Shown: positions 14,948 through 46,102 of the stretch, one piece after another
Position numbering within the stretch: the first letter of the stretch is position 1
Layout of the letters: every line of letters starts with the position of its first letter
Notes under the pieces: model-generated
Seen by the model: the letters and a program-made list of their open reading frames with translations, nothing else
What the model was told of the DNA's origin: nothing
Database searches by the model: none
Made by a program: the position numbers and the translations under genes
Source of the DNA: Marispirochaeta sp.
GTDB lineage: Bacteria; Spirochaetota; Spirochaetia; JC444; Marispirochaetaceae
Length of the DNA stretch: 64,000 nt
NCBI GenBank assembly: GCA_963676835.2
Contig: CAXXFF010000003.1
Span: 384,001-448,000, forward strand
Direction of reading: 5' to 3'

Positions 14948-15112
14948 CCGGGCGTCACCCGGCCACATGCTCACGCATGCGGCCGGGTCGGGCCTTGCGG
15001 GGCTCCGGCCCCTGCACCTAAATCCTATATCAGCTATTTTTATATACGAGGGCTCTACAGTAAGGATTTAGGTGCAGGGTCTGCCTCCGGCACCCCTCCA
15101 GTCCCTGACGCG
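14948..15112. repeat. GC-rich multi-hairpin intergenic (REP-like) element containing a 17-bp inverted-repeat module
   Basis: ACCCGGCC...GGCCGGGT hairpin, then CCCTGCACCTAAATCCT (15010-15026) and AGGATTTAGGTGCAGGG (15063-15079). Confidence 0.6.
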
Positions 15113-15246
15113 AAGGCAAGTGTAGAGCTTCTTACATGCGATTTCCCCTGTACAGCCTTCACTCACCTGCATTGCAGTTATTTTACCGGTGCACCGGACT
15201 TTACGAGAACCTCAGCAGTTCCCATCGGCTCCCGCAGGATTACCGC

Positions 15247-18200
15247 TTATCGGGCTTTAATCCCCAGGGGAAAATCATTCCCGAACATAAAAGTTGTTGG
15301 AAATTGAATACTGCTTTTATACCGTTCAGAAAGATTCGGGACCGCCTCGTCTATGTACAAACGCAGACTGGAAGCGGTTATCCTCCCGTCCCGGGTGGCA
15401 GCCTCTCCGCTGATTCCCTGAATAAGCGCATAGGTAAAAACCCCGTGCCCGAGCTGTGCAACCTCAGAGGCAAACTGTTCGTCATTGGTGGCTGTTAAAA
15501 TCACCGAACCGCTGGCCCGGGCAAGCTGCTTCAGGGCGATCTCTTCAGCCGCGCCGCGTACAGCAAAACCTTCCGCAAAAGCGCCGGAATTGCAGGCATC
15601 CACCAGAATCATTTGCTTGGTTGCAGGAATAGCTGAAAGCCGTTCCCGGAATTCGGCAGAGGACAAGCCGTGGGAGAGAATATTGTCGGTCCGGGTCATC
15701 TGGGTAACCTCGGGCAACACAAAATAGAAGCTGTTTTTCCCCTCATCCTCCATGGCTATCCCGTGACCAGCATAATAGAGAACAAACACATCATCCGGCT
15801 TCGAAGATGAAGTTACCTGATCAAGCATGCGTATAACATTTTCCCGGGTCAGGTTTTGTTCATACAGACTGGTTATCCTCACATTCCCGAAAAGTGTGGA
15901 TGAAGCCTGTCTAATAGAGGTCTCAAATGCCTTCGCATCAGCCAGTGCATAATTCAAATTGTATCTTGGATTTTTGTAGGAGTTAGCGCCAAGAATTACT
16001 GCATACAAATCCGGTTTTCCAGAGGAAGAAGACTGGTAACGGGCGGTAAAAGCTGCGGGAATACTCTGGGTTCGTTCACTGCTGAAGGCAACTGCAGAAA
16101 CCGTATTGTCGCCATTTGCAAGGGATATGGTAAAATACTCAACCACAGAGCCGGATGCTGCTGACCGCTGCAAACCTCTTACATTCCTTTCCAGAGCCTT
16201 GTTGTTGAGGTACAGCAGCATATTATCTATCCCCCCTCCCTGATCAACCGCTGTTACCTTTAACTCCAGCTGACCTTTAAATGATCCCGGAACAGAAAAG
16301 AGATTACCCGGAGTTATATATGCACCGTTTTCATTCTTCACTTCAACAGTAACCCTGGGCGGCAGGGAAATCCCGTCCTGTATCGATGCGTTCTGGTACT
16401 GCTGATACTCTTTCCCCTGAATAATAGCCGCCACAATATCAGGGCGGTTATACTTTTCAAAAAACGAGTCTATAGGATAGCAGTTCACACCCTCAACTAC
16501 GTAAATATCATTTCTGGCAATAGAATCGGAGCCTTGAAAATAACCTTCCGGAGTCCAGGTAAGCCAGTCGCCGGATTGCTGGGTAAAAGTGTATGAGAGA
16601 TCTTCCCCTGTCTGAATATTCATTAATTCAACCAGTCCGGAACTATGCGTTCTAAAAACAAGCTTGCTGCCGTCAGGGCTGAGCTCTCCGTAGGAGATCC
16701 AGTGGTACCTTTCAAATTCCCGCTTAATCCTTCCAGTTGCAGTTTCAAGGACGGTAAAGCCTATATCCCGGACAAACAGCACCATTTCACCTGTTCTTTC
16801 GGAAAAGGCTGTCCCATCAATGGTTTGAAATTGAGAAGAAAACTGACTTTTTGAAAAGGAATACCTCCAAATGAGATCTCCGGTCAAAAAGTCGTTGCAA
16901 TATAAAGAATGGTCCGAGGCATTACTATCGCTGCCCCAGAAAAGATATTTCCCATCAGAAGACATACTGAAAATGGCATCGTTACCCGGCGTATTCAGGG
17001 AGTAAGGTAGGGAATTACCCGTAGCGACATCAATCATTCGGTATTTGTTAATGTGCTGACCACTCTGATATTCCTTATAAACCAACCGATTAATTTCCGG
17101 ATGTACAAAAATCCGTCCTTTAATATTTTCTTTTTTCCACAGAAGTCTTCCGGTTGCAGTATCCAGTACTTCTATTGTATCGTTACTGAAGGATTTAAAA
17201 ACTTCATAGCGGCCGTCACCGGTAATGGCTGAGTAATCATTTATTCCAGGCTTTCTATGGGTCTGTACCTGAGCATCCGCATTCCTGCTGATAAGCTGCA
17301 TGCTGTCTGCACTAAATTCCCATTCAACATCCCGTTGCCCAATAAGAATAGATTTTCCATCATCACTGAAGTTGACGTCATAGATATTCTGCATGGTTAT
17401 ACCACCGAGGGATCCTTCCTGATGGCCATTGCTTCTATTCCAGAATTTTATTTCGTTTGTTCTGCTTTTAGTAATCAGATAATTCTGATATTTATCATAA
17501 CAACGAAAATAAATGTTGCTGTCATAAGTATTTGAATGAGGATCATCTGTTTTTACTCTGTAGAGTTTATTTGTTGTAAGGTTGTATCTTTTTAAACCAG
17601 GTAGACGTAAAGTTGATCCTTCATAGAATACATAATCCCCATCTTGGGAATGGATAATTTCACTGATGCTGAGAGCACCAGCGCCACCAATATCTTCCAA
17701 TCGGGTCCAGGTGTTCGTATTCAGGTCCCAAACACCTACATAATGTGTATACGGATTTTCCTGCCTTTCTGTTCCAATAATCTTTGAGAAATTACCAACT
17801 TTTGGATAAATCTCGATACCATCAATCGTTTTATATTCATTTGCCGTAAAAGTGTCTTTGCTCCATCGTTCCAAATAAGTGTTTCCATGTAAGTGGTATG
17901 CCAAAAGAAAATTACCATCATGGTCGCAATCAATAACCTCATGGGTATTCCAGAAATTAAAATCCTTAATCATTTGGCCAGTCGCCGTACTATAAATTCT
18001 TACCCAACTCTGCTTCTGTCCTTTGAAAATGACACCGGTAACAATAAGATATCTGTTGTCATATGAAAACTTAGCCGAAAATGTCCTGTCCATGGGCCCT
18101 TCAAGCTTGACTTCATTTCCTGTTTGAAGGTTTATCAGTGACGATATTTTCCCCCCGCCAAGATAATACATACTGCTGTCAGGGGAAAATTCAATAATAA

Positions 18201-18459
18201 CACTCCCCCCTCCGCTGTCATGTACATGTTCCCGAATACTGGCCCCGGTATTCCTGTAATCCCATAAAATAGATTTATCCCCTCCCCAGGACATCAGATA
18301 TTTACCATCCGGGCTTATCTTAACCAGGTTCGGGGAGCTTGAATGGCCAAGGTTAACCCTTACTTCAGCAGGCGAATTGTTTATGTTCTGTGAATATACA
18401 TTGATTAAAATGCTTATGGAGAAAAAGAGAAAAAACCCCAGTTTTTTATAGTTTTTCAT
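15247..18459 (-). CDS. exported WD40/beta-propeller plus caspase-like (peptidase C14) protein
   Basis: Signal peptide; repeated FSPD/ISPDG blades; WTPEGYF...FFEKYNRPD linker; catalytic YYAGHG and VDACNSG. Confidence 0.85.
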   Translation of the reverse strand: MKNYKKLGFFLFFSISILINVYSQNINNSPAEVRVNLGHSSSPNLVKISPDGKYLMSWGGDKSILWDYRNTGASIREHVHDSGGGSVIIEFSPDSSMYYLGGGKISSLINLQTGNEVKLEGPMDRTFSAKFSYDNRYLIVTGVIFKGQKQSWVRIYSTATGQMIKDFNFWNTHEVIDCDHDGNFLLAYHLHGNTYLERWSKDTFTANEYKTIDGIEIYPKVGNFSKIIGTERQENPYTHYVGVWDLNTNTWTRLEDIGGAGALSISEIIHSQDGDYVFYEGSTLRLPGLKRYNLTTNKLYRVKTDDPHSNTYDSNIYFRCYDKYQNYLITKSRTNEIKFWNRSNGHQEGSLGGITMQNIYDVNFSDDGKSILIGQRDVEWEFSADSMQLISRNADAQVQTHRKPGINDYSAITGDGRYEVFKSFSNDTIEVLDTATGRLLWKKENIKGRIFVHPEINRLVYKEYQSGQHINKYRMIDVATGNSLPYSLNTPGNDAIFSMSSDGKYLFWGSDSNASDHSLYCNDFLTGDLIWRYSFSKSQFSSQFQTIDGTAFSERTGEMVLFVRDIGFTVLETATGRIKREFERYHWISYGELSPDGSKLVFRTHSSGLVELMNIQTGEDLSYTFTQQSGDWLTWTPEGYFQGSDSIARNDIYVVEGVNCYPIDSFFEKYNRPDIVAAIIQGKEYQQYQNASIQDGISLPPRVTVEVKNENGAYITPGNLFSVPGSFKGQLELKVTAVDQGGGIDNMLLYLNNKALERNVRGLQRSAASGSVVEYFTISLANGDNTVSAVAFSSERTQSIPAAFTARYQSSSSGKPDLYAVILGANSYKNPRYNLNYALADAKAFETSIRQASSTLFGNVRITSLYEQNLTRENVIRMLDQVTSSSKPDDVFVLYYAGHGIAMEDEGKNSFYFVLPEVTQMTRTDNILSHGLSSAEFRERLSAIPATKQMILVDACNSGAFAEGFAVRGAAEEIALKQLARASGSVILTATNDEQFASEVAQLGHGVFTYALIQGISGEAATRDGRITASSLRLYIDEAVPNLSERYKSSIQFPTTFMFGNDFPLGIKAR

Positions 18460-18863
18460 GGAATAAGGCTCCTGTTGATCATTGCAATAAGATAAAACCG
18501 CAGGACAGCTTCAGTATTCTGATAACTGTAACGAGTAGCATAATTAAATTCAATATGTGCAAAAATGTAACTGATTGATCTCTAATATTATTTATAAATG
18601 TTTAATTTTTTGTGATTTTTGTTATTTGCGTGAGCATCAGATAAGGAAGCAGAGAGTCGGAATAAATAACGGGAATTGCCTGACAATTATATGGCATTAT
18701 ATTTTAGGATTGACTTGAAGAATGGTTTAATCTACGCAGGCTCCGCTAGGCCGTAATCTTCGATTACCTTGTGTTCGCGCATTTGACCTTGCATAGTCGC
18801 GCTGATCTCAAAAATCGGCGGGCTTTTTGTAACCGTCAATTAAACCTCACCCAGAGAAAAAAA

Positions 18864-20384
18864 TCAGAGGGAAATATTCCATGGCAGCAATTTTTCCCAG
18901 TTATCAGATTCATTCATGAGTGGAGCTTCCTCAAAAACGCGTCTCAGGTAGTCGTTCGGGTTCACATTATTTTGTTTGGCTGTCTCAATCAGTGAATACA
19001 TGGCACAGGAACTTTCAGCCCCCTTTGGACTACCGGAAAATAACCAGTTCTTTCGGCCCAGAACAAACGGCCGAATAGCCTGTTCCGCGCTATTGTTGTC
19101 AGGTGTCAGATAGGGAGAATCGAGGTAGTGTACCAGTTTCTCCCATTCGTTCAAGGTGTACTGAATTGCTTTCCCAAGCAATAACGAAGGAGGAACCTGC
19201 TGACTGCGTTTTTCAAGCCAGGTTCTAAACTTCTGCAAAACCGGTTCCGCCTGAGATTTGCGCTGGTCAACAAACTGGTCTTCGGGCAATTCCATACTGC
19301 GAAGACGCTCTTCAATTCCATACAGTTTCCTGATGGCATTCAATGCTTCCTGTGCACTTGCTGCTTTCTTCGAGGCCTTTGCAGCTTCATGAAACTTTCG
19401 CCGAACATGGGCCATGCAGCCGACATGGACTATCTGTTCATTCCCCGCCAGGGCTGTACGATACGCATCATAGCCGTCGGTCTGTAAAAAGCCGCTGAAT
19501 CCATCGAGAAGTTCTTTAATATGCCGGGACCCGCGGGTTTCCCGGTATGAGTAAAGCAATCCCGGGTTTTCCGGAGGGCCGCCGCGGGCAAGCCACATAT
19601 AGGATTTCGCCGTGTCAGGGCGTTCCGGTTCTCCGTGTACCTGGACCGGGGTTTCATCCATGTTGATGACCGGCCCTGACCGGATATGCGTTTTCAGTGT
19701 TTCTATTAACGGTTCAATTTTATCAAACGCCGCCTGCTGCCAGTTGCTCATGTTCTGACGGCTTATGTGGATGCCGATTCTTTCAAACCGTTTCTCCTGC
19801 CGGTAATAGGGCAGATGATCGACAAACTTGTTCACTATGATGAAGGAGATCAATCCTGGCGTTACAATGCTTTTAGGGATAATACTTGCAGGGGGATCAG
19901 CAACCCTTACTGCCGGCTTCTCTTCATCCCCGGAGCCTTCACAGTTTTTACAGGCATACTTGGGGCGGATAATCCGTTCCACCCACATCTTCGGGGGGAT
20001 TACCTGTAAGCGCTCGCTGGTCTCTTCGCCGATACGAACCAGCGCATGGCCGCAGGCACACTGTTTTTCTTCTTCGGGAATATCAATGATGATCTCATCC
20101 CGGGGAAGGCTTTCATCAATTGGTTTTCTGCCGTATTTCCTGCGGGGATGGGACTGAACTGGTACGGAAGTCTCTGATGCATCGTTCTCCGAAGTACCAT
20201 TCTCTTCAAGTCCGAACAACAGCGGTTGATACTCATCCAGTTGTTCTTTTTCACTTTTACGGCCAAATTTCTGAAGAAGAAGCAATTTGTACTGCTCTTC
20301 CAAGGCACCATAACGCTGCTCCCAGGAAGTATTAAGTTCGTGGATATAGTCCTGTACTTCCCTGGGAAGTTCTGTAACATCCAT
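18864..20384 (-). CDS. tnpC: IS66 transposase TnpC
   Basis: KFGRKSE, CACG...CKNC zinc finger, HLPYYRQ, MDETPV, QTDGY, CMAHVRRKF and DNNSAEQAIR. Confidence 0.95.
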   Translation of the reverse strand: MDVTELPREVQDYIHELNTSWEQRYGALEEQYKLLLLQKFGRKSEKEQLDEYQPLLFGLEENGTSENDASETSVPVQSHPRRKYGRKPIDESLPRDEIIIDIPEEEKQCACGHALVRIGEETSERLQVIPPKMWVERIIRPKYACKNCEGSGDEEKPAVRVADPPASIIPKSIVTPGLISFIIVNKFVDHLPYYRQEKRFERIGIHISRQNMSNWQQAAFDKIEPLIETLKTHIRSGPVINMDETPVQVHGEPERPDTAKSYMWLARGGPPENPGLLYSYRETRGSRHIKELLDGFSGFLQTDGYDAYRTALAGNEQIVHVGCMAHVRRKFHEAAKASKKAASAQEALNAIRKLYGIEERLRSMELPEDQFVDQRKSQAEPVLQKFRTWLEKRSQQVPPSLLLGKAIQYTLNEWEKLVHYLDSPYLTPDNNSAEQAIRPFVLGRKNWLFSGSPKGAESSCAMYSLIETAKQNNVNPNDYLRRVFEEAPLMNESDNWEKLLPWNISL

Positions 20385-20445
20385 GCTAATAAGAATTCTA
20401 GCATGCCGTACATTCTATGTAAATTCCTTTACACCAATAAAATGC

Positions 20446-20793
20446 TTAAGAAACCCGCGAATATTCCAAACTAGTATGTTCATTCCAAAAATCGATGCCT
20501 TTCAACAGCATCGATAGCTGTTCCGGGGTAATCATACGTGCAGTTTCTTCGGTTACGGGCCAGGGAAACTTATGCTTTTCCAGTTTCTTCTGCCAGAGAC
20601 AGAATCCGTTCTTGTCCCAGTAGAGGGCTTTCATAATTCGTCGTTCGCGGTTGCAGAACAGAAACAGATTGCCGCTTAACGGATTTTCATTCATATAGTC
20701 CTGCACCATGACAACTAAGCCGTTGATTGCTTTACGCATATCAGTGATGCCTGGCCGGATAAATATCTGTACCGCTGATAATTCTGGGGTCAT
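20446..20793 (-). CDS. tnpB: IS66 accessory protein TnpB
   Basis: TDMRKAINGL, LFLFCNR and YWDKNGFCLWQKKLE. Confidence 0.95.
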   Translation of the reverse strand: MTPELSAVQIFIRPGITDMRKAINGLVVMVQDYMNENPLSGNLFLFCNRERRIMKALYWDKNGFCLWQKKLEKHKFPWPVTEETARMITPEQLSMLLKGIDFWNEHTSLEYSRVS

Positions 20794-21119
20794 TCATAAA
20801 CCCTCAAGGCTGTTAATACTGCTTTAAGCTGGTCATGGTTTGCTGTTACCGGCAGAGTAATAACAATATCGTGCAACTTTATGGTAATGGTTTCTTTTTT
20901 GGATAAATGATGAAAAGAGCTTTTTACTGGTATGAACCGGGCTGCTGCTGTTTCAGAGCCTATTCCGGTTTGTACGGCACGTTTCCTTTCGGCTTTTTTC
21001 CAGCTGTAAAATGTTGTGGGTGGTATTTCGTGCTGCCGGCAATACACCTGCCCGCTTAACCCACTTTTTTCCCAATTTCTGAGATGTTCACTCTGCTGTT
21101 CCCGGTTATATTTGACCAT
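20790..21119 (-). CDS. tnpA: IS66 accessory protein TnpA
   Basis: WEKSGLS...YCRQHEI...TFYSWKK HTH; 4-bp overlap with tnpB. Confidence 0.88.
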   Translation of the reverse strand: MVKYNREQQSEHLRNWEKSGLSGQVYCRQHEIPPTTFYSWKKAERKRAVQTGIGSETAAARFIPVKSSFHHLSKKETITIKLHDIVITLPVTANHDQLKAVLTALRVYE

Positions 21120-21245
21120 GCGATTCCTCCATTAAGGGAGGATTGTAGGGCATTCATTGATGTCGGCATAAGGTGGGGTTTAATTGACGGTTACGTTTAA
21201 TTGACGGTTACGTTACTTTGGCTGCGCCAAGCCGCGCTGATCTGC

Positions 21246-21311
21246 GACGTCGCCTGGCTTTTTTTTGTCCAACGGTAAAACCGTTTGGACAAAAAAAAGC
21301 CAGGCGACGTC
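21246..21311 (-). terminator. long hairpin at the end of the rRNA operon, overlapping the 5S 3' end
   Basis: GACGTCGCCTGGC-T8-GTCCAA ... TTGGAC-A8-GCCAGGCGACGTC. Confidence 0.55.
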
Positions 21312-21408
21312 CTACTCTCCCGCTTTCGCAGTACCATCGGCGCTGAAGGGCTTAACTTCCGTGTTCGACATGGGAACGGGTGGATCCCCTTCGCTAAGGT
21401 CACCTGGC
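21299..21408 (-). rRNA. rrf: 5S rRNA
   Basis: Reverse complement contains CCCATGTCGAACAC, GCCGATGGTACT and GGGAGAGTAGG, with complementary ends. Confidence 0.95.
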
Positions 21409-22011
21409 AATAATTACCATTTTACGGTCACCATCGGGGTGTACCCCTCCGGCTTCCTTTGTTCAAGCTACTCACAGGTCAGCAAAGCCGCCTGTTCGTA
21501 TTGAACGTTTAGTGCGTCTATCCTAAAAGGATAAACTATTTTGTTTTTGTCTTTCGACTATAGAGCACATACTCAGTAACTGTTTAATCAGCTCTGAAAA
21601 ACGGTCGGGTCCCCCGACCGGCTTTTCATTCGTCGGGCAGAGGGTAGTCGATGGAGTACTCTCCAGCGACGACCGTAAAAGGAGAAGAAGCACACAATAA
21701 TATGGTCAAGCCTCACGACTAATTAGTACTGGTCAGCTGAACATGTTACCATGCTTAGACCGCCAGCCTATCAACCAGATCTTCTCTCTGGTGTCTTCAG
21801 GGACCTTAAAGGCCCTGGGATGTCTCATCTCGAGGGGGGCTTCCCACTTAGATGCCTTCAGCGGTTATCCCGACCGAACTTGGCTACCCAGCACTTACCC
21901 TTGGCAGGATAACTGGTACACCAGAGGTTCGTCCATTCCGGTCCTCTCGTACTAAGAACAGATCCTCTCAAACATCCAACGCCTGTGGCAGATAGGGACC
22001 GAACTGTCTCG

Positions 22012-22076
<65 letters not shown>

Positions 22077-22077
22077 C

Positions 22078-22117
<40 letters not shown>

Positions 22118-22323
22118 TTTGCCGTCGATATGAACTCTTGGGCAAAATCAGCCTGTTATCCCCGGAGTACCTTTTGTCCGTTAAGTGACGGCCCTTCCAC
22201 TCAGAACCGCCAGATCACTAAGACCTACTTTCGTACCTGCTCGACATGTACGTCTCGCAGTCAAGCAACCTTGTGCCTTTGCACTCGTACATTGATTTCC
22301 AACCAATGCGAGGTTACCTTCGC

Positions 22324-22365
<42 letters not shown>

Positions 22366-22636
22366 CGCCCACCTGACATTGTCCACGTACCCGCTTCAGG
22401 GCACCCGTTAGAAATATAACTTGCAAAGGGAGGTATTTCACCAACGACTCTGCGCAACCTAGCGACCACGCTTCTTAGTCTCCCTCCTATCCTACACATT
22501 ACAAGCCACATTTCAATGCCAAGCTACAGTAAAGGTTCACGGGGTCTTTCCGTCTAACCACAGGTAATCGGCATCTTCACCGATACTTCAATTTCACCGG
22601 GTTTCACGTTGAGACAGCGTTCAAGTCGTTACACCA

Positions 22637-22710
<74 letters not shown>

Positions 22711-23406
22711 TGGGGCTTCAATTCGACGCTCTCACATCTCCTCTTAACCTTCCAGCACCGGGCAGGTGTCAGTCCCTATACTTCATCTTGCGATTTAGCA
22801 GAGACCTGTGTTTTTGGTAAACAGTCGCTTGAACCTTTTCTCTGCAACCCCTAACAAACTTTAACATCCATCGGGGGCCACACTTCTCCCTAAGTTACGT
22901 GTGTATTTTGCCGAGTTCCTTAACGTGAATTCTCCCGAGCGCCTTAGAATACTCATCCCGCCTACCTGTGTCGGTTTGCGGTACGGTCCCTTACAGCATA
23001 TCTTTAGAAGCTATTTCTCGGCACCTTGATCCCACCAGCTTCGCTCGTCCGTAGACTCACTCGTCTTAACACCTCGTCTCAAACTGCGGATTTACCTGCA
23101 GCTCTCAACAACTAAGTGCTTAAACCGGGACAACCATCGCCCGGCCTGGCTTCGCCTAATGCGTCGCTCCATCAGTCCTGTAAGAGGTACGGGAATATTA
23201 ACCCGTTTCCCATCGACTACGCCTTTCGGCCTCGCCTTAGGGGCCGACTAACCCTTGGGCAGATTACCTTAACCCTGGAATCCTTAGGCTTTCGGCGGAC
23301 AGGGATCTCACCTGTCTTTTCGTTACTCATGCCTGCATTCTCTCTTCCATCCCCTCCAGCATCCCTTTCAGGACACCTTCAACAGTACATGGAATGCTCC
23401 TCTACC

Positions 23407-23708
23407 CCCTGCACCTATTTAAAATCACCAGTTATTAGACTATTCGATATTCGTTCGAGCATTTGACGTCTTGCTCGTCCGTCTTTTAATCGCTTTTCAC
23501 GTTTTTGCGCATCAGATTTGCTTAAGTATGCTTCATAATACACTAAATGCCATTCGTCATTTTTTGTGTACGGGCTTAGTTTCCCTTCATGCTCACTCAT
23601 TCGTCTTTTAAGATCACTTGTATAACCAATATACACATGCTCTTTTTGACTCTTCAGCACATAAACGTAATACATAATCTAACCTCGTAATTTTAAATAG
23701 GTGCAGGG
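23407..23708 (-). mobile_element. 23S intervening sequence (helix 45 position) with 19-bp terminal inverted repeats, encoding a GIY-YIG protein
   Basis: CCCTGCACCTATTTAAAAT and ATTTTAAATAGGTGCAGGG lie between the conserved ...GCTCCTCTACC and CCGTAGCTTCGGT...TTAGCCCCG tracts. Confidence 0.88.
23415..23675 (-). CDS. standalone GIY-YIG nuclease (UPF0213/SLX1-like), 86 aa
   Basis: YYVYVL...YIGYTSDLKRRMSEH...LVYYEAY..KSDA.KRE..LK; GAGG RBS upstream; same sense as the rRNA. Confidence 0.9.
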   Translation of the reverse strand: MYYVYVLKSQKEHVYIGYTSDLKRRMSEHEGKLSPYTKNDEWHLVYYEAYLSKSDAQKREKRLKDGRARRQMLERISNSLITGDFK

Positions 23709-23758
23709 CCGTAGCTTCGGTACTATGCTTAGCCCCGTTACATTGTCGGCGCACAACG

Positions 23759-23793
<35 letters not shown>

Positions 23794-23794
23794 T

Positions 23795-23827
<33 letters not shown>

Positions 23828-24323
23828 TCGCCGTTGCACTTCCTTTTCCACTCGAGCATAGTTCTGAGACCTTAGCTGACGGTCTGGGCTGTTTCCCTCT
23901 TGACCACGAATCTTGTCACCCGTAGTCTGACTCCCGCGCATCATTTAACCGGCATTCGGAGTTTGACTGAGTTTGGTACCCGGTGAAGGGCCCTAGCCCA
24001 ATCAGTGCTCTACCTCCGGCAAACTAACGCGAGGCTAGCCCTAAAGCTATTTCGAGGAGTGCCAGCTATCTCCGAGTTTGATTAGCCTTTCACTCCTATC
24101 CACACCTCATCCCTGCCTTTTTCAACAGACTAGGGTTCGGTCCTCCACTTTGTGTTACCAAAGCTTCAACCTGGACATGGATAGATCACTCGGCTTCGGG
24201 TCTACCGCATGCTACTAAATCGCCCTATTCAGACTCGGTTTCCCTTCGGCTTCGGTACTTCTATACCTTAACCTCGCAACATACGGTAACTCGCAGGCTC
24301 ATTCTACAAAAGGCACGCCATCA

Positions 24324-24424
24324 CCCGGCACCTAAATCCCCCAAATAAGCTCTTCGTTTTCGCCTACTTGGCTTGTTTAGCTCTCTAAACACCAAGATTC
24401 TCATCTCAGGATTTAGGTGCCGGG
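24324..24424 (-). other. 23S intervening sequence (helix 25 position), 101 bp, no ORF
   Basis: 16-bp IR CCCGGCACCTAAATCC / GGATTTAGGTGCCGGG between CAAAAGGCACGCCATCA and GACCGCTTGTAGG. Confidence 0.85.
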
Positions 24425-25036
24425 CTTTGACCGCTTGTAGGTCCACGGTTTCAGGTTCTATTTCACTCCCCTCCCGGGGTGCTTTTCACCGTTCCCTCAC
24501 GGTACTATTCGCTATCGGTAGCTGTCTCGTATTTAGCCTTGGAAGGTGGTCCTCCCGGATTCAAACAGGATTTCTCGTGTCCCGTCCTACTCAGGTACGC
24601 GCTCAGCGCTCACTCATGTTTCGACTACGGGGCTTTCACCCTCTTTGACCGGCTTTTCCAATACCGTTCGTCTACACTTATAAGTCACCTTTATGCACGC
24701 CCTACAACCCCAGTGCGCATGCGTACTGGTTTGGGCTATATCCCGTTCGCTCGCCGCTACTCAGGATATCTCTTTTGATTTCTTTTCCTCTGGGTACTTA
24801 GATGGTTCAGTTCCCCAGGTATTGCTCATATATGCTATTTTATTCACATATATGTGACAGAGAGTCTACTCTGCCGGGTTACCCCATTCGGTGATCCAGG
24901 GTTCAATAGATGTTTGCTCCTACCCCTGGCTTTTCGCAGCTTACCACGACCTTCTTCGCCGGACAGCTCCAAGGCATCCTCCGTGGACCCTTATTCGCTT
25001 GACCATATTAGTTTGTGCTCCTTCTTTGGCGGTTGC

Positions 25037-25066
25037 CCCTGCACTAAATTATTATTTAGTGCAGGG
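25037..25066. repeat. minimal hairpin of the same IR family, in the ITS
   Basis: CCCTGCACTAAAT-tatt-ATTTAGTGCAGGG. Confidence 0.75.
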
Positions 25067-25294
25067 TCTCCCTTGGTGCTGTTGCGCAGTCTCAGAGTCG
25101 GCAAAGCCGCTCTTCGCTGCACGAAAGTCATCAAGAGTGTAGTCGCAGTTGCCCGCTAAACTACATTCGCAACCATCCCGAAACTCCCCTTTATGATGCA
25201 ACTACTTCCCATTTCGTTACACCGGTATGTTCCGGTTCTCTATGTCAAAAGATCGAAAAAAAATAACCTAAGTTTAAAACTTTGGTTATTGTTA

Positions 25295-25368
<74 letters not shown>

Positions 25369-25546
25369 GGATATATAAAGATAAGGGCGAAGATTTCCGC
25401 TTATTAAAAAGCAAGTTTACCTTGTATGTTTCATACTTATCCCGTCTGTATCCCATTTACAAAAGCTTTGTCAGACTTGCGTCTTAAAAAGCATCCGCTC
25501 AGCTTTAATGCTGATTGAGAACTATTCGTTCCAGTTCCCTTCTCGT

Positions 25547-27073
<1,527 letters not shown>

Positions 27074-45981: not shown

Positions 45982-46102
45982 TATTTTGTTTTCTGCGCAG
46001 GTAAATCTTGACGACGAAGAATCTGGGGAAAGAGCAGTTTTTAGACTTGCCCCACATAATTAACAAATTGACCAAGGGCTTTCTCCCCGGTACTCTATCC
46101 CC

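Follow-up and report, generated by a model that had tools for sequence, protein, structure and literature searches.

Four inverted repeats in and near a ribosomal RNA operon

The window analysed here is a stretch of 64,000 nucleotides from Marispirochaeta sp. (NCBI GenBank assembly GCA_963676835.2, contig CAXXFF010000003.1, positions 384,001 to 448,000 of the forward strand). The genome (working label G000) comprises 4.43 Mb in 4 contigs and has four ribosomal RNA (rRNA) operons, one of which lies in the window. Four perfect inverted repeats with related arms are found in this operon and beyond it. The longest is a cassette in the 23S rRNA gene, which encodes a minimal GIY-YIG nuclease, while the others are gene-less. 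Comparison with other operons, other repeats, related species and GIY-YIG loci from other phyla points to one family of hairpin-ended insertions, the members of which take the place of the tip of an existing hairpin. The features concerned are the following.

14950-15111, minus strand: repeated structured unit that hosts the 70-bp hairpin, 150-190 nt, four copies in the genome
15010-15079, minus strand: gene-less family hairpin of 70 bp, with perfect 17-bp arms and a 36-nt interior
21702-25004, minus strand: 23S rRNA gene (Rfam large subunit model), host of two inserts
23407-23708, minus strand: full GIY-YIG cassette in 23S helix 45, 302 bp, with perfect 19-bp terminal inverted repeats
23415-23675, minus strand (the sense of the 23S rRNA): open reading frame (ORF) for an 86-aa minimal GIY-YIG nuclease (Pfam PF01541)
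24324-24424, minus strand: gene-less hairpin insert in 23S helix 25, 101 bp, with perfect 16-bp arms
25037-25066, minus strand: family hairpin in the 16S-23S spacer, 30 bp, with perfect 13-bp arms

The segment between both 23S inserts corresponds to positions 594-1205 of the 2925 positions of the Rfam large subunit model. We take the two sites to be 23S helices 25 and 45, an assignment that these positions fit. A distance of 33 nt separates the spacer hairpin from the 23S 5' end, which lies downstream of it. No intron family was detected in the window at Rfam gathering scores.

All four inverted-repeat pairs had been reported in a first-pass annotation of the window, which was made from the sequence alone, and all were recovered at the positions given there. 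The arms had been considered to be related. The arm pattern CCCKGCACCTAWWT matches six times in the window, as compared to a mean of 0.01 in 100 shuffled versions, none of which (0/100) reaches six, so that the similarity exceeds chance. The pattern misses the spacer copy, which has one C fewer on each of its arms. Arm differences between copies are always compensated on the opposite arm, as had also been noticed. As RNA, all four repeats have a much more stable predicted fold than shuffled sequence (z -6.2 to -9.7); for the cassette, the predicted RNA fold has an energy of -100.9 kcal/mol (z -9.7).

Filled and empty sites

For a comparison of filled and empty sites, the four rRNA operons of this genome and those of four congeners (G001-G004) were used. 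At helix 45, the cassette is present in one of the four operons of the genome. The remaining three have a native 20-nt tip at exactly the same place. The sequence of this tip is variable among the congeners, none of which carries the insert. At helix 25, the gene-less insert is present in all four operons of the genome, in one of four in G003 and in none of three in G002, and it is absent in G004. The helix 25 of G001 carries a cassette of 289 bp with 22-bp arms, and the encoded GIY-YIG protein is 51% identical to that from the window. The spacer hairpin is unique to the window operon. An unrelated hairpin is found at the aligned place in the other three, in an alignment that is weak (76% identity).

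It had been proposed in the first-pass annotation that family members land in pre-existing hairpins, and empty sites had been suggested as the place to look for a target duplication. As judged from the aligned filled and empty forms, the insert replaces the tip of a pre-existing hairpin at helices 25 and 45, in the 150-190 nt repeated unit and in a miniature inverted-repeat transposable element (MITE) of ~160 nt (for the latter two, see below). This is less sure for the 16S-23S spacer. A comparison of filled and empty forms revealed no target duplication in either 23S helix, in the repeated unit or at the centre of the MITE. The alignments thus show native hairpin tips to be replaced, with no target duplication, in host sequences of at least four kinds.

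Sequencing data were also inspected. In run X2, which is possibly the assembly's own sample, the filled helix-45 form has a depth of 4.9 and the empty joint a depth of 19.4. Run X1 contains the empty helix-45 joint only, in contigs for which coverage holes carry no weight. The middle of the helix-25 insert is uncovered in every run; these are contig data, and such holes prove nothing.

Gene-less members in the genome

A strict motif scan of the genome returned nine paired hairpins. When the genome was scanned for perfect inverted repeats (seed 11, loop of up to 420, stems of at least 13 bp kept), 18 of the 144 repeats obtained begin with the family motif. The proposal of a single family with further copies and empty sites is thereby borne out. 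The flanks GC- and -TCT, which had been described as common to two of the copies, are not a general feature, with other family copies flanked differently. Within one genome, the arm motif is common to inserts of the 23S rRNA gene and to intergenic repeats, which upholds the proposed link between 23S intervening sequences (IVSs) and such repeats. Two distinct family hairpins share the intergenic region at C4:490904-491011; they have lengths of 36 and 40 bp and are separated by 32 bp.

The 70-bp hairpin of the window is part of the repeated unit. Copies of this unit are found in the window, at L001, L002 and L003 of the same genome, and in two congeners (L018 in G003 and L019 in G002). The ends of the unit read GCGTC...GACGC. 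Each of the four copies in the genome lies between co-directional genes that are functionally unrelated, and all six copies fold better on the strand of the genes, by 2-12 kcal/mol. The genes downstream of the four copies code for a serine dehydratase, a chemoreceptor, CheW and a TRL-like protein. Because these four are unrelated, the reading of the unit as a riboswitch or leader was ruled out. A reading as a CGTC-tagged repetitive extragenic palindromic (REP) sequence was not adopted either, because the published CGTC repeats, as described in the relevant passages of PMC3733652, have stems of 8-9 bp with A-T pairs at their start, which does not fit the unit.

The interior of the 70-bp hairpin is kept in three other genome copies. 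The claim that the interiors of the family are unrelated thus stands for the cassette as compared to the gene-less copies but does not stand for this hairpin. In the window copy, the 36-nt interior is inverted. When compared to the three other copies, 26-30 of its 36 bases match in the flipped and 19-20 in the unflipped orientation. This would fit either a re-insertion in the opposite orientation or a recombination between the arms. The site is occupied by a variant long hairpin in the unit of G003, and by just a 5-bp stem with a small loop in that of G002. A second, variable hairpin of the unit is also family-like in two copies. There is no Rfam family for the 70-bp hairpin, the repeated unit or the MITE, and only weak microRNA-like chance matches were returned. 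The MAFFT alignment of the six unit copies was poor at one end, and a covariance model was dropped.

The MITE has its own terminal repeats as well as 4-bp flanking repeats (TTAC, ATAC and TTAA, for example). There are at least 19 full copies and two that are internally deleted. An example is found at C1:401360-401522, and a partial copy is located in the window (46000-46045). The central hairpin was compared among 19 aligned copies and has three forms: form A, which belongs to the family (8 copies), form B, which is unrelated (8 copies), and form C, which is a second family variant (3 copies). All three share identical junctions, and forms A and B are found in copies that are otherwise near-identical.

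A helix of family type is also found in RNase P RNA, at the following positions.

G003, L160, 1501-1533: RNase P family-type helix
G000, C1:59294-59661: RNase P family-type helix

In G003 and in another congener, G005, this hairpin of family type is perfect, and in G000, it is nearly so. G001, G002 and G004 have a hairpin of equal length there, which is imperfect and diverged. The RNase P helix is probably a gene-less member of the family.

Taken together, these comparisons show that perfect palindromes which share a conserved end motif form a family. As judged by their common ends, the hairpins at helix 25, in the spacer, in the repeated intergenic unit and in the MITE are gene-less members.

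The GIY-YIG gene and its product

The ORF in the cassette matches the Pfam GIY-YIG family (PF01541) with 54.8 bits (cut-off 22.6). Its Pfam matches are limited to GIY-YIG and T5orf172; PF05635 (S23p) is not among them. The protein consists of a single domain of 86 aa and is devoid of a separate DNA-binding domain. The closest solved structures are those of the UPF0213 proteins 1zg2 (E 1.2e-13) and 1ywl (E 8.5e-9), followed by SLX1. The structures of I-TevI (E 0.17) and UvrC are weak matches to the GIY-YIG profile. In 34 aligned sequences, Y15, G17, R25, H29 and E60 are invariant, and Y5 is kept in at least 90%. The conserved Tyr, Tyr, Arg, His and Glu presumably have the catalytic roles. NCBIfam has no family for the protein from the window, and the homologue from G001 scores 16.8 bits with TIGR01453, which is below the cut-off of 56. 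Slx1 is a structure-specific nuclease, and from this analogy, we infer that the window protein may read hairpin structure. Stand-alone bacterial GIY-YIG domains have been placed in the Slx1 cluster (PMC1564403, in the section that treats them). No literature was found that deals with UPF0213, YhbQ and GIY-YIG jointly.

The last codons and the stop codon of the ORF lie inside the right arm of the cassette. In the predicted fold, the stem continues over the Shine-Dalgarno sequence and the AUG of the ORF (23676-23708), which pair with the 3' end of the cassette (23407-23440). According to this model, translation of the gene may need a stem that is opened or cut. A gene for RNase III is present in the genome.

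A full member of the family, as delineated by these features, has ~300 bp, perfect terminal inverted repeats that start with YCCNGCAC, and a gene of ~85 codons of the minimal Slx1/UPF0213 type.

GIY-YIG loci across phyla

At E<=1e-5, 1312 homologues of the window protein were obtained, many of them on short contigs. A profile built from 34 sequences detected 565 relatives in contigs from one genome per species, and the best 79 loci were kept. In 62 of these, the gene is enclosed by an inverted-repeat bracket that spans 270-370 bp. The arms contain GCAC within their first 10 nt in 42 of the 62 brackets (~2.7% expected by chance). Their consensus is Y-C-C-N-GCAC-Y-N-A, and in 42 of 42 cases, a C stands 3 nt before GCAC.

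In 37 of the 79 loci, the gene is located in or beside rRNA genes, as judged by BLAST against the rRNAs of the window. At least 11 sites are involved, and the gene is in the rRNA sense in all 37 cases. The 23S sites are helix 25 (9 loci), helix 45 (6), ~2266 (6) and ~3189 (4), with three singletons in or next to 23S. The 16S sites are around position 64 (6 loci) and at three others. Two of 20 loci outside rRNA genes adjoin a transfer RNA (tRNA) or RNase P RNA gene. In Lagierella massiliensis (L037 and L084), both 23S rRNA genes have apparent inserts of ~310-330 bp at helix 25 and at ~2266; for one insert per locus, the presence of a GIY-YIG gene was confirmed.

When the arm subtypes are placed on a quick protein tree, 16 changes are required, as compared to a mean of 27.3 in shuffles, and 0 of 500 shuffles are as low; such clustering can, however, come from kinship alone. 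More telling are pairs with the same arms at different 23S sites. L060 and L073, for example, share 14 identical arm bases, and their proteins are 69% identical. On this evidence, the arm motif is shown to be linked with the GIY-YIG gene across phyla and across sites.

The ORF is intact in 80 of 81 cases (70-110 aa). The ratio of nonsynonymous to synonymous substitution rates (dN/dS) is 0.06-0.37 in all 13 scorable pairs, and these values show purifying selection on the gene. The nearest relative of the window protein is 68-70% identical and is also encoded at helix 45, in a 23S rRNA gene that is only 73% identical at the DNA level. That the nearest relative resides in such a distant 23S rRNA gene, while the copy of a congener is 51% identical, points to horizontal spread.

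Distribution in the genus

Pfam GIY-YIG matches in this genome are confined to the cassette gene and to one place in a 614-aa frame, which we take to be UvrC from its size. Within the genus, small GIY-YIG genes are confined to G000 and G001. Paired family hairpins are found in G000, G003 and G005 (in G005 only in RNase P RNA). G001 has just its cassette, and there are no paired ones in G002. The loose pattern CCNGCACYWAWWT was scanned over 81 genomes and is near background in most of them. It matches 30 times in G000 and 23 times in G003, as compared to 5 matches of the control in either genome; the six matches in G002 are unpaired singles.

Other features of the window

The remaining RNA genes of the operon are the following.

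25549-27073, minus strand: 16S rRNA gene of the operon
25295-25368, minus strand: tRNA gene in the 16S-23S spacer
21299-21407, minus strand: 5S rRNA gene of the operon

The spacer of the window operon (25005-25548) is 76% identical to those of the other three operons where it can be aligned. A 146-nt stretch, which carries the sole tRNA gene found here, replaces 405 nt of the other three. This suggests that the spacer was imported or recombined. In two rRNA operons, the 5S rRNA gene is closely followed by genes for IS66-family transposases, which have small ORFs upstream (18864-21119 in the window and C3:951931-954196). The window also codes for a 1070-aa protein (15247-18459) with beta-propeller repeats and a C-terminal caspase-like (Peptidase_C14) domain. 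Another caspase-domain protein adjoins the unit copy L003. The serine dehydratase encoded nearby has its nearest named homologue in Marispirochaeta aestuarii (68% identity).

Proposed mechanism and alternatives

We consider it quite probable that the four repeats are one family of hairpin-ended insertions, which consists of a selfish cassette with a gene of the Slx1/UPF0213 type and of gene-less derivatives, including classical IVSs. The descriptive part of this explanation is much firmer than its mechanism. What the first-pass annotation had observed is confirmed, while its interpretation is partly supported by the data available from sequence.

A possible mechanism is as follows. The gene is oriented in the sense of the host transcript and would therefore be read from the rRNA precursor. 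The long stem would be tolerated, as it merely lengthens an exposed helix, and RNase III would cut it out of the transcript. The nuclease might recognize a hairpin or cruciform, or the GCAC motif. It would cut hairpins, and in the repair of the cut, a family hairpin would be copied in, by a gene conversion similar to homing and aided by short G+C matches at the base of the stem. Gene-less copies would result from internal loss or decay, or they might be served in trans.

Several points weigh against this explanation. Excision of the cassette, translation and nuclease activity are assumed. To our knowledge, GIY-YIG enzymes have no strand-transfer chemistry; as there is no target duplication either, the arrival of the first copy at a new site is left unexplained. 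The gene-less copies have 11-13 arm bases in common with the cassette of this genome, and nothing of the interior. The RNase P hairpin looks like a case of old vertical inheritance with compensating changes, having the same length in all six species. G003 has family hairpins (in helix 25, in the repeated unit and in RNase P RNA), and its sole GIY-YIG match is in a 645-aa frame of the size of UvrC. The association between arm motif and GIY-YIG gene, which had been suggested from the window and which stands across phyla and sites, does not extend to G003. Gene-less copies thus persist where no nuclease gene is resident, as is usual for non-autonomous elements but as would also be expected of the independent module discussed next. 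With respect to the loci from other phyla, the 79 include close kin and paired operons, so that counts based on them overstate independence. Seventeen of the 79 have no clear bracket, and 20 of the 62 arms lack an exact GCAC, most of these being near variants. There is no clear orientation bias of the neighbours at 26 non-rRNA loci, with 13 of 24 co-oriented upstream and 16 of 24 downstream.

According to one alternative, which we regard as unlikely, the hairpin came first, as an independent module that serves as a structural or RNase III-type stem in stable RNAs and repeats, and the GIY-YIG gene is a secondary invader of its loops, of the homing type. The arms would then be the target site, and gene-less copies would be targets that were not invaded. 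This would account for gene-less copies that are far more numerous than the single cassette and unrelated to it in their interiors, and for hairpins in a genome such as G003. An RNase P hairpin of constant length would also be as expected. However, related ORFs at different rRNA sites keep their arm subtype, so that arms and gene appear to move together, and the ORF end with its stop codon inside the right arm suggests a tightly integrated unit. In addition, an independent module leaves unexplained why gene-less hairpins replace native tips in rRNA, in the repeated unit and in the MITE.

It is highly improbable that the repeats are REP- or MITE-like sequences moved by another enzyme (a Y1 transposase of the type found in IS200 or in REP-associated tyrosine transposases (RAYTs), an IS66 transposase or the transposase of the MITE), with the GIY-YIG gene as a passenger. 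The genome does contain one Y1_Tnp gene, with a family-like hairpin ~2.9 kb upstream, but it is not flanked by family hairpins, as none is found within ~1.4 kb on either side. The RAYT/IS200 alternative, which had been raised in the first-pass annotation, was checked in this way. IS66 genes adjoin two rRNA operons, and one form of the hairpin is found in 8 of 19 MITE copies, which indicates that transposition of the MITE can multiply a hairpin. The MITE itself, however, has 4-bp flanking repeats, whereas the hairpin inserts lack a target duplication. The arms also lack the GTAG and CGTC tags of REPs (as these are described in PMC3733652). Finally, the arm motif tracks the GIY-YIG gene in phyla and at loci where such a transposase was neither sought nor seen.

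We give next to no credence to the view that no mobile element is involved and that the stems are alike by chance or by convergence on a host processing signal, spread by recombination of rRNA operons: RNase III substrates need long perfect stems, and the window spacer suggests recombination or import of rRNA segments, but we know of no requirement of RNase III for such a sequence, the arm matches in the window far exceed those expected, and the same motif of 8-13 nt is found in non-rRNA repeats and around the gene in many phyla and at many sites.

A broader view suggests itself, which we put forward as possible, if somewhat doubtful. The elements would be a separate class of prokaryotic mobile elements, hairpin-swap cassettes, in which a minimal Slx1-like nuclease recognizes extruded hairpins and swaps in the palindrome of the element. 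Their spread across Bacteria would have reached exposed helices in rRNA, in RNase P RNA, in tRNA operons and in other repeats, and many classical rRNA IVSs as well as some REP-like hairpin families would originate from them.

The origin of IVSs and their mode of spread have posed a question since about 1990. One genome now joins a coding member, gene-less members inside and outside of rRNA genes, filled and empty alleles and an end motif that can be mutated, which makes the question accessible to bench experiments. If it is true that the nuclease acts on hairpins, this would also provide a function for a large and so far unassigned family of stand-alone bacterial GIY-YIG proteins.

Comparison with known systems

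The classical 23S IVSs (helices 9, 25 and 45; Salmonella, Leptospira, Campylobacter and Coxiella) are excised by RNase III. They occupy the same sites as the inserts described here, and their termini are complementary and form a long stem. Inserts at helices 25 and 45, processing by RNase III and ORFs in IVSs are classical findings according to the relevant passages of PMC4990558. The same passages describe replacement of the helix tip, sporadic occurrence among operons and species, ORFs in some IVSs and a mobile origin that has long been suspected; "remnant of transposition" and "mobile element with an ORF" are still listed there as untested origins. The inserts described here likewise replace the tip of helix 25 or 45, have a long terminal stem and occur sporadically. 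They differ from classical IVSs in that their cargo is a GIY-YIG gene, not S23p (PF05635), the arm motif is found across phyla, and the same arms occur outside rRNA genes; excision is, in our case, predicted.

REPs, REP doublets forming hairpins (REPINs) with their RAYTs, tagged palindromes and MITEs resemble the family in being short multicopy palindromes that are, for the most part, transcribed and located between genes and that include coding as well as non-coding members (PMC3733652, where it defines them). With MITEs, the hairpin family shares terminal inverted repeats and many copies but not the target-site duplication. The features that define the REP/REPIN-RAYT system in the passages of PMC3733652 that deal with it (a tag and a flanked RAYT gene) were not found here. 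The arms start with CCC and carry neither the GTAG nor the CGTC tag, the family has neither an HUH nor a DDE enzyme, and an existing hairpin is swapped out, unlike an insertion between bases.

Homing genes of the I-TevI type are similar in that a selfish nuclease gene, which frequently resides in rRNA genes or other conserved ones, has filled as well as empty alleles. The cassette differs from these by the absence of a self-splicing intron and of a DNA-binding domain, and its sequence is nearer to UPF0213/SLX1 (E 1.2e-13) than to I-TevI (E 0.17). It has in common with the stand-alone Slx1-like domains of prokaryotes that a minimal catalytic domain occurs without an auxiliary domain, with UPF0213 proteins as best matches (PMC1564403, as far as its survey describes them). 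The part of that survey concerned with these domains, in contrast, makes no mention of inverted repeats or of an rRNA context.

The first-pass annotation stated that no element of this kind had been described. This did not hold for its components, as IVSs of rRNA are a classical finding and as bacteria of the candidate phyla radiation (CPR, Patescibacteria) have published cases of GIY-YIG ORFs within rRNA insertions that are not introns (PMC11270868). It held for the ends and for the gene-less relatives: in a literature search with supplements outside its scope, no description was found of the conserved ends, of gene-less relatives beyond rRNA genes or of tip replacement. The CPR insertions are similar to those described here, as they have small GIY-YIG genes, are neither group I nor group II introns and occur at several sites. 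In contrast to our findings, the passages of PMC11270868 that deal with them mention no inverted repeats and no gene-less relatives, and they doubt a spread by homing. The present data come from a non-CPR genome, that of Marispirochaeta, and from loci across many non-CPR phyla. New aspects are thus the clean filled and empty alleles inside one such genome and its genus, the occurrence of gene-less members in RNase P RNA as well as in two further families of repeats, and the swapping of hairpins inside a MITE.

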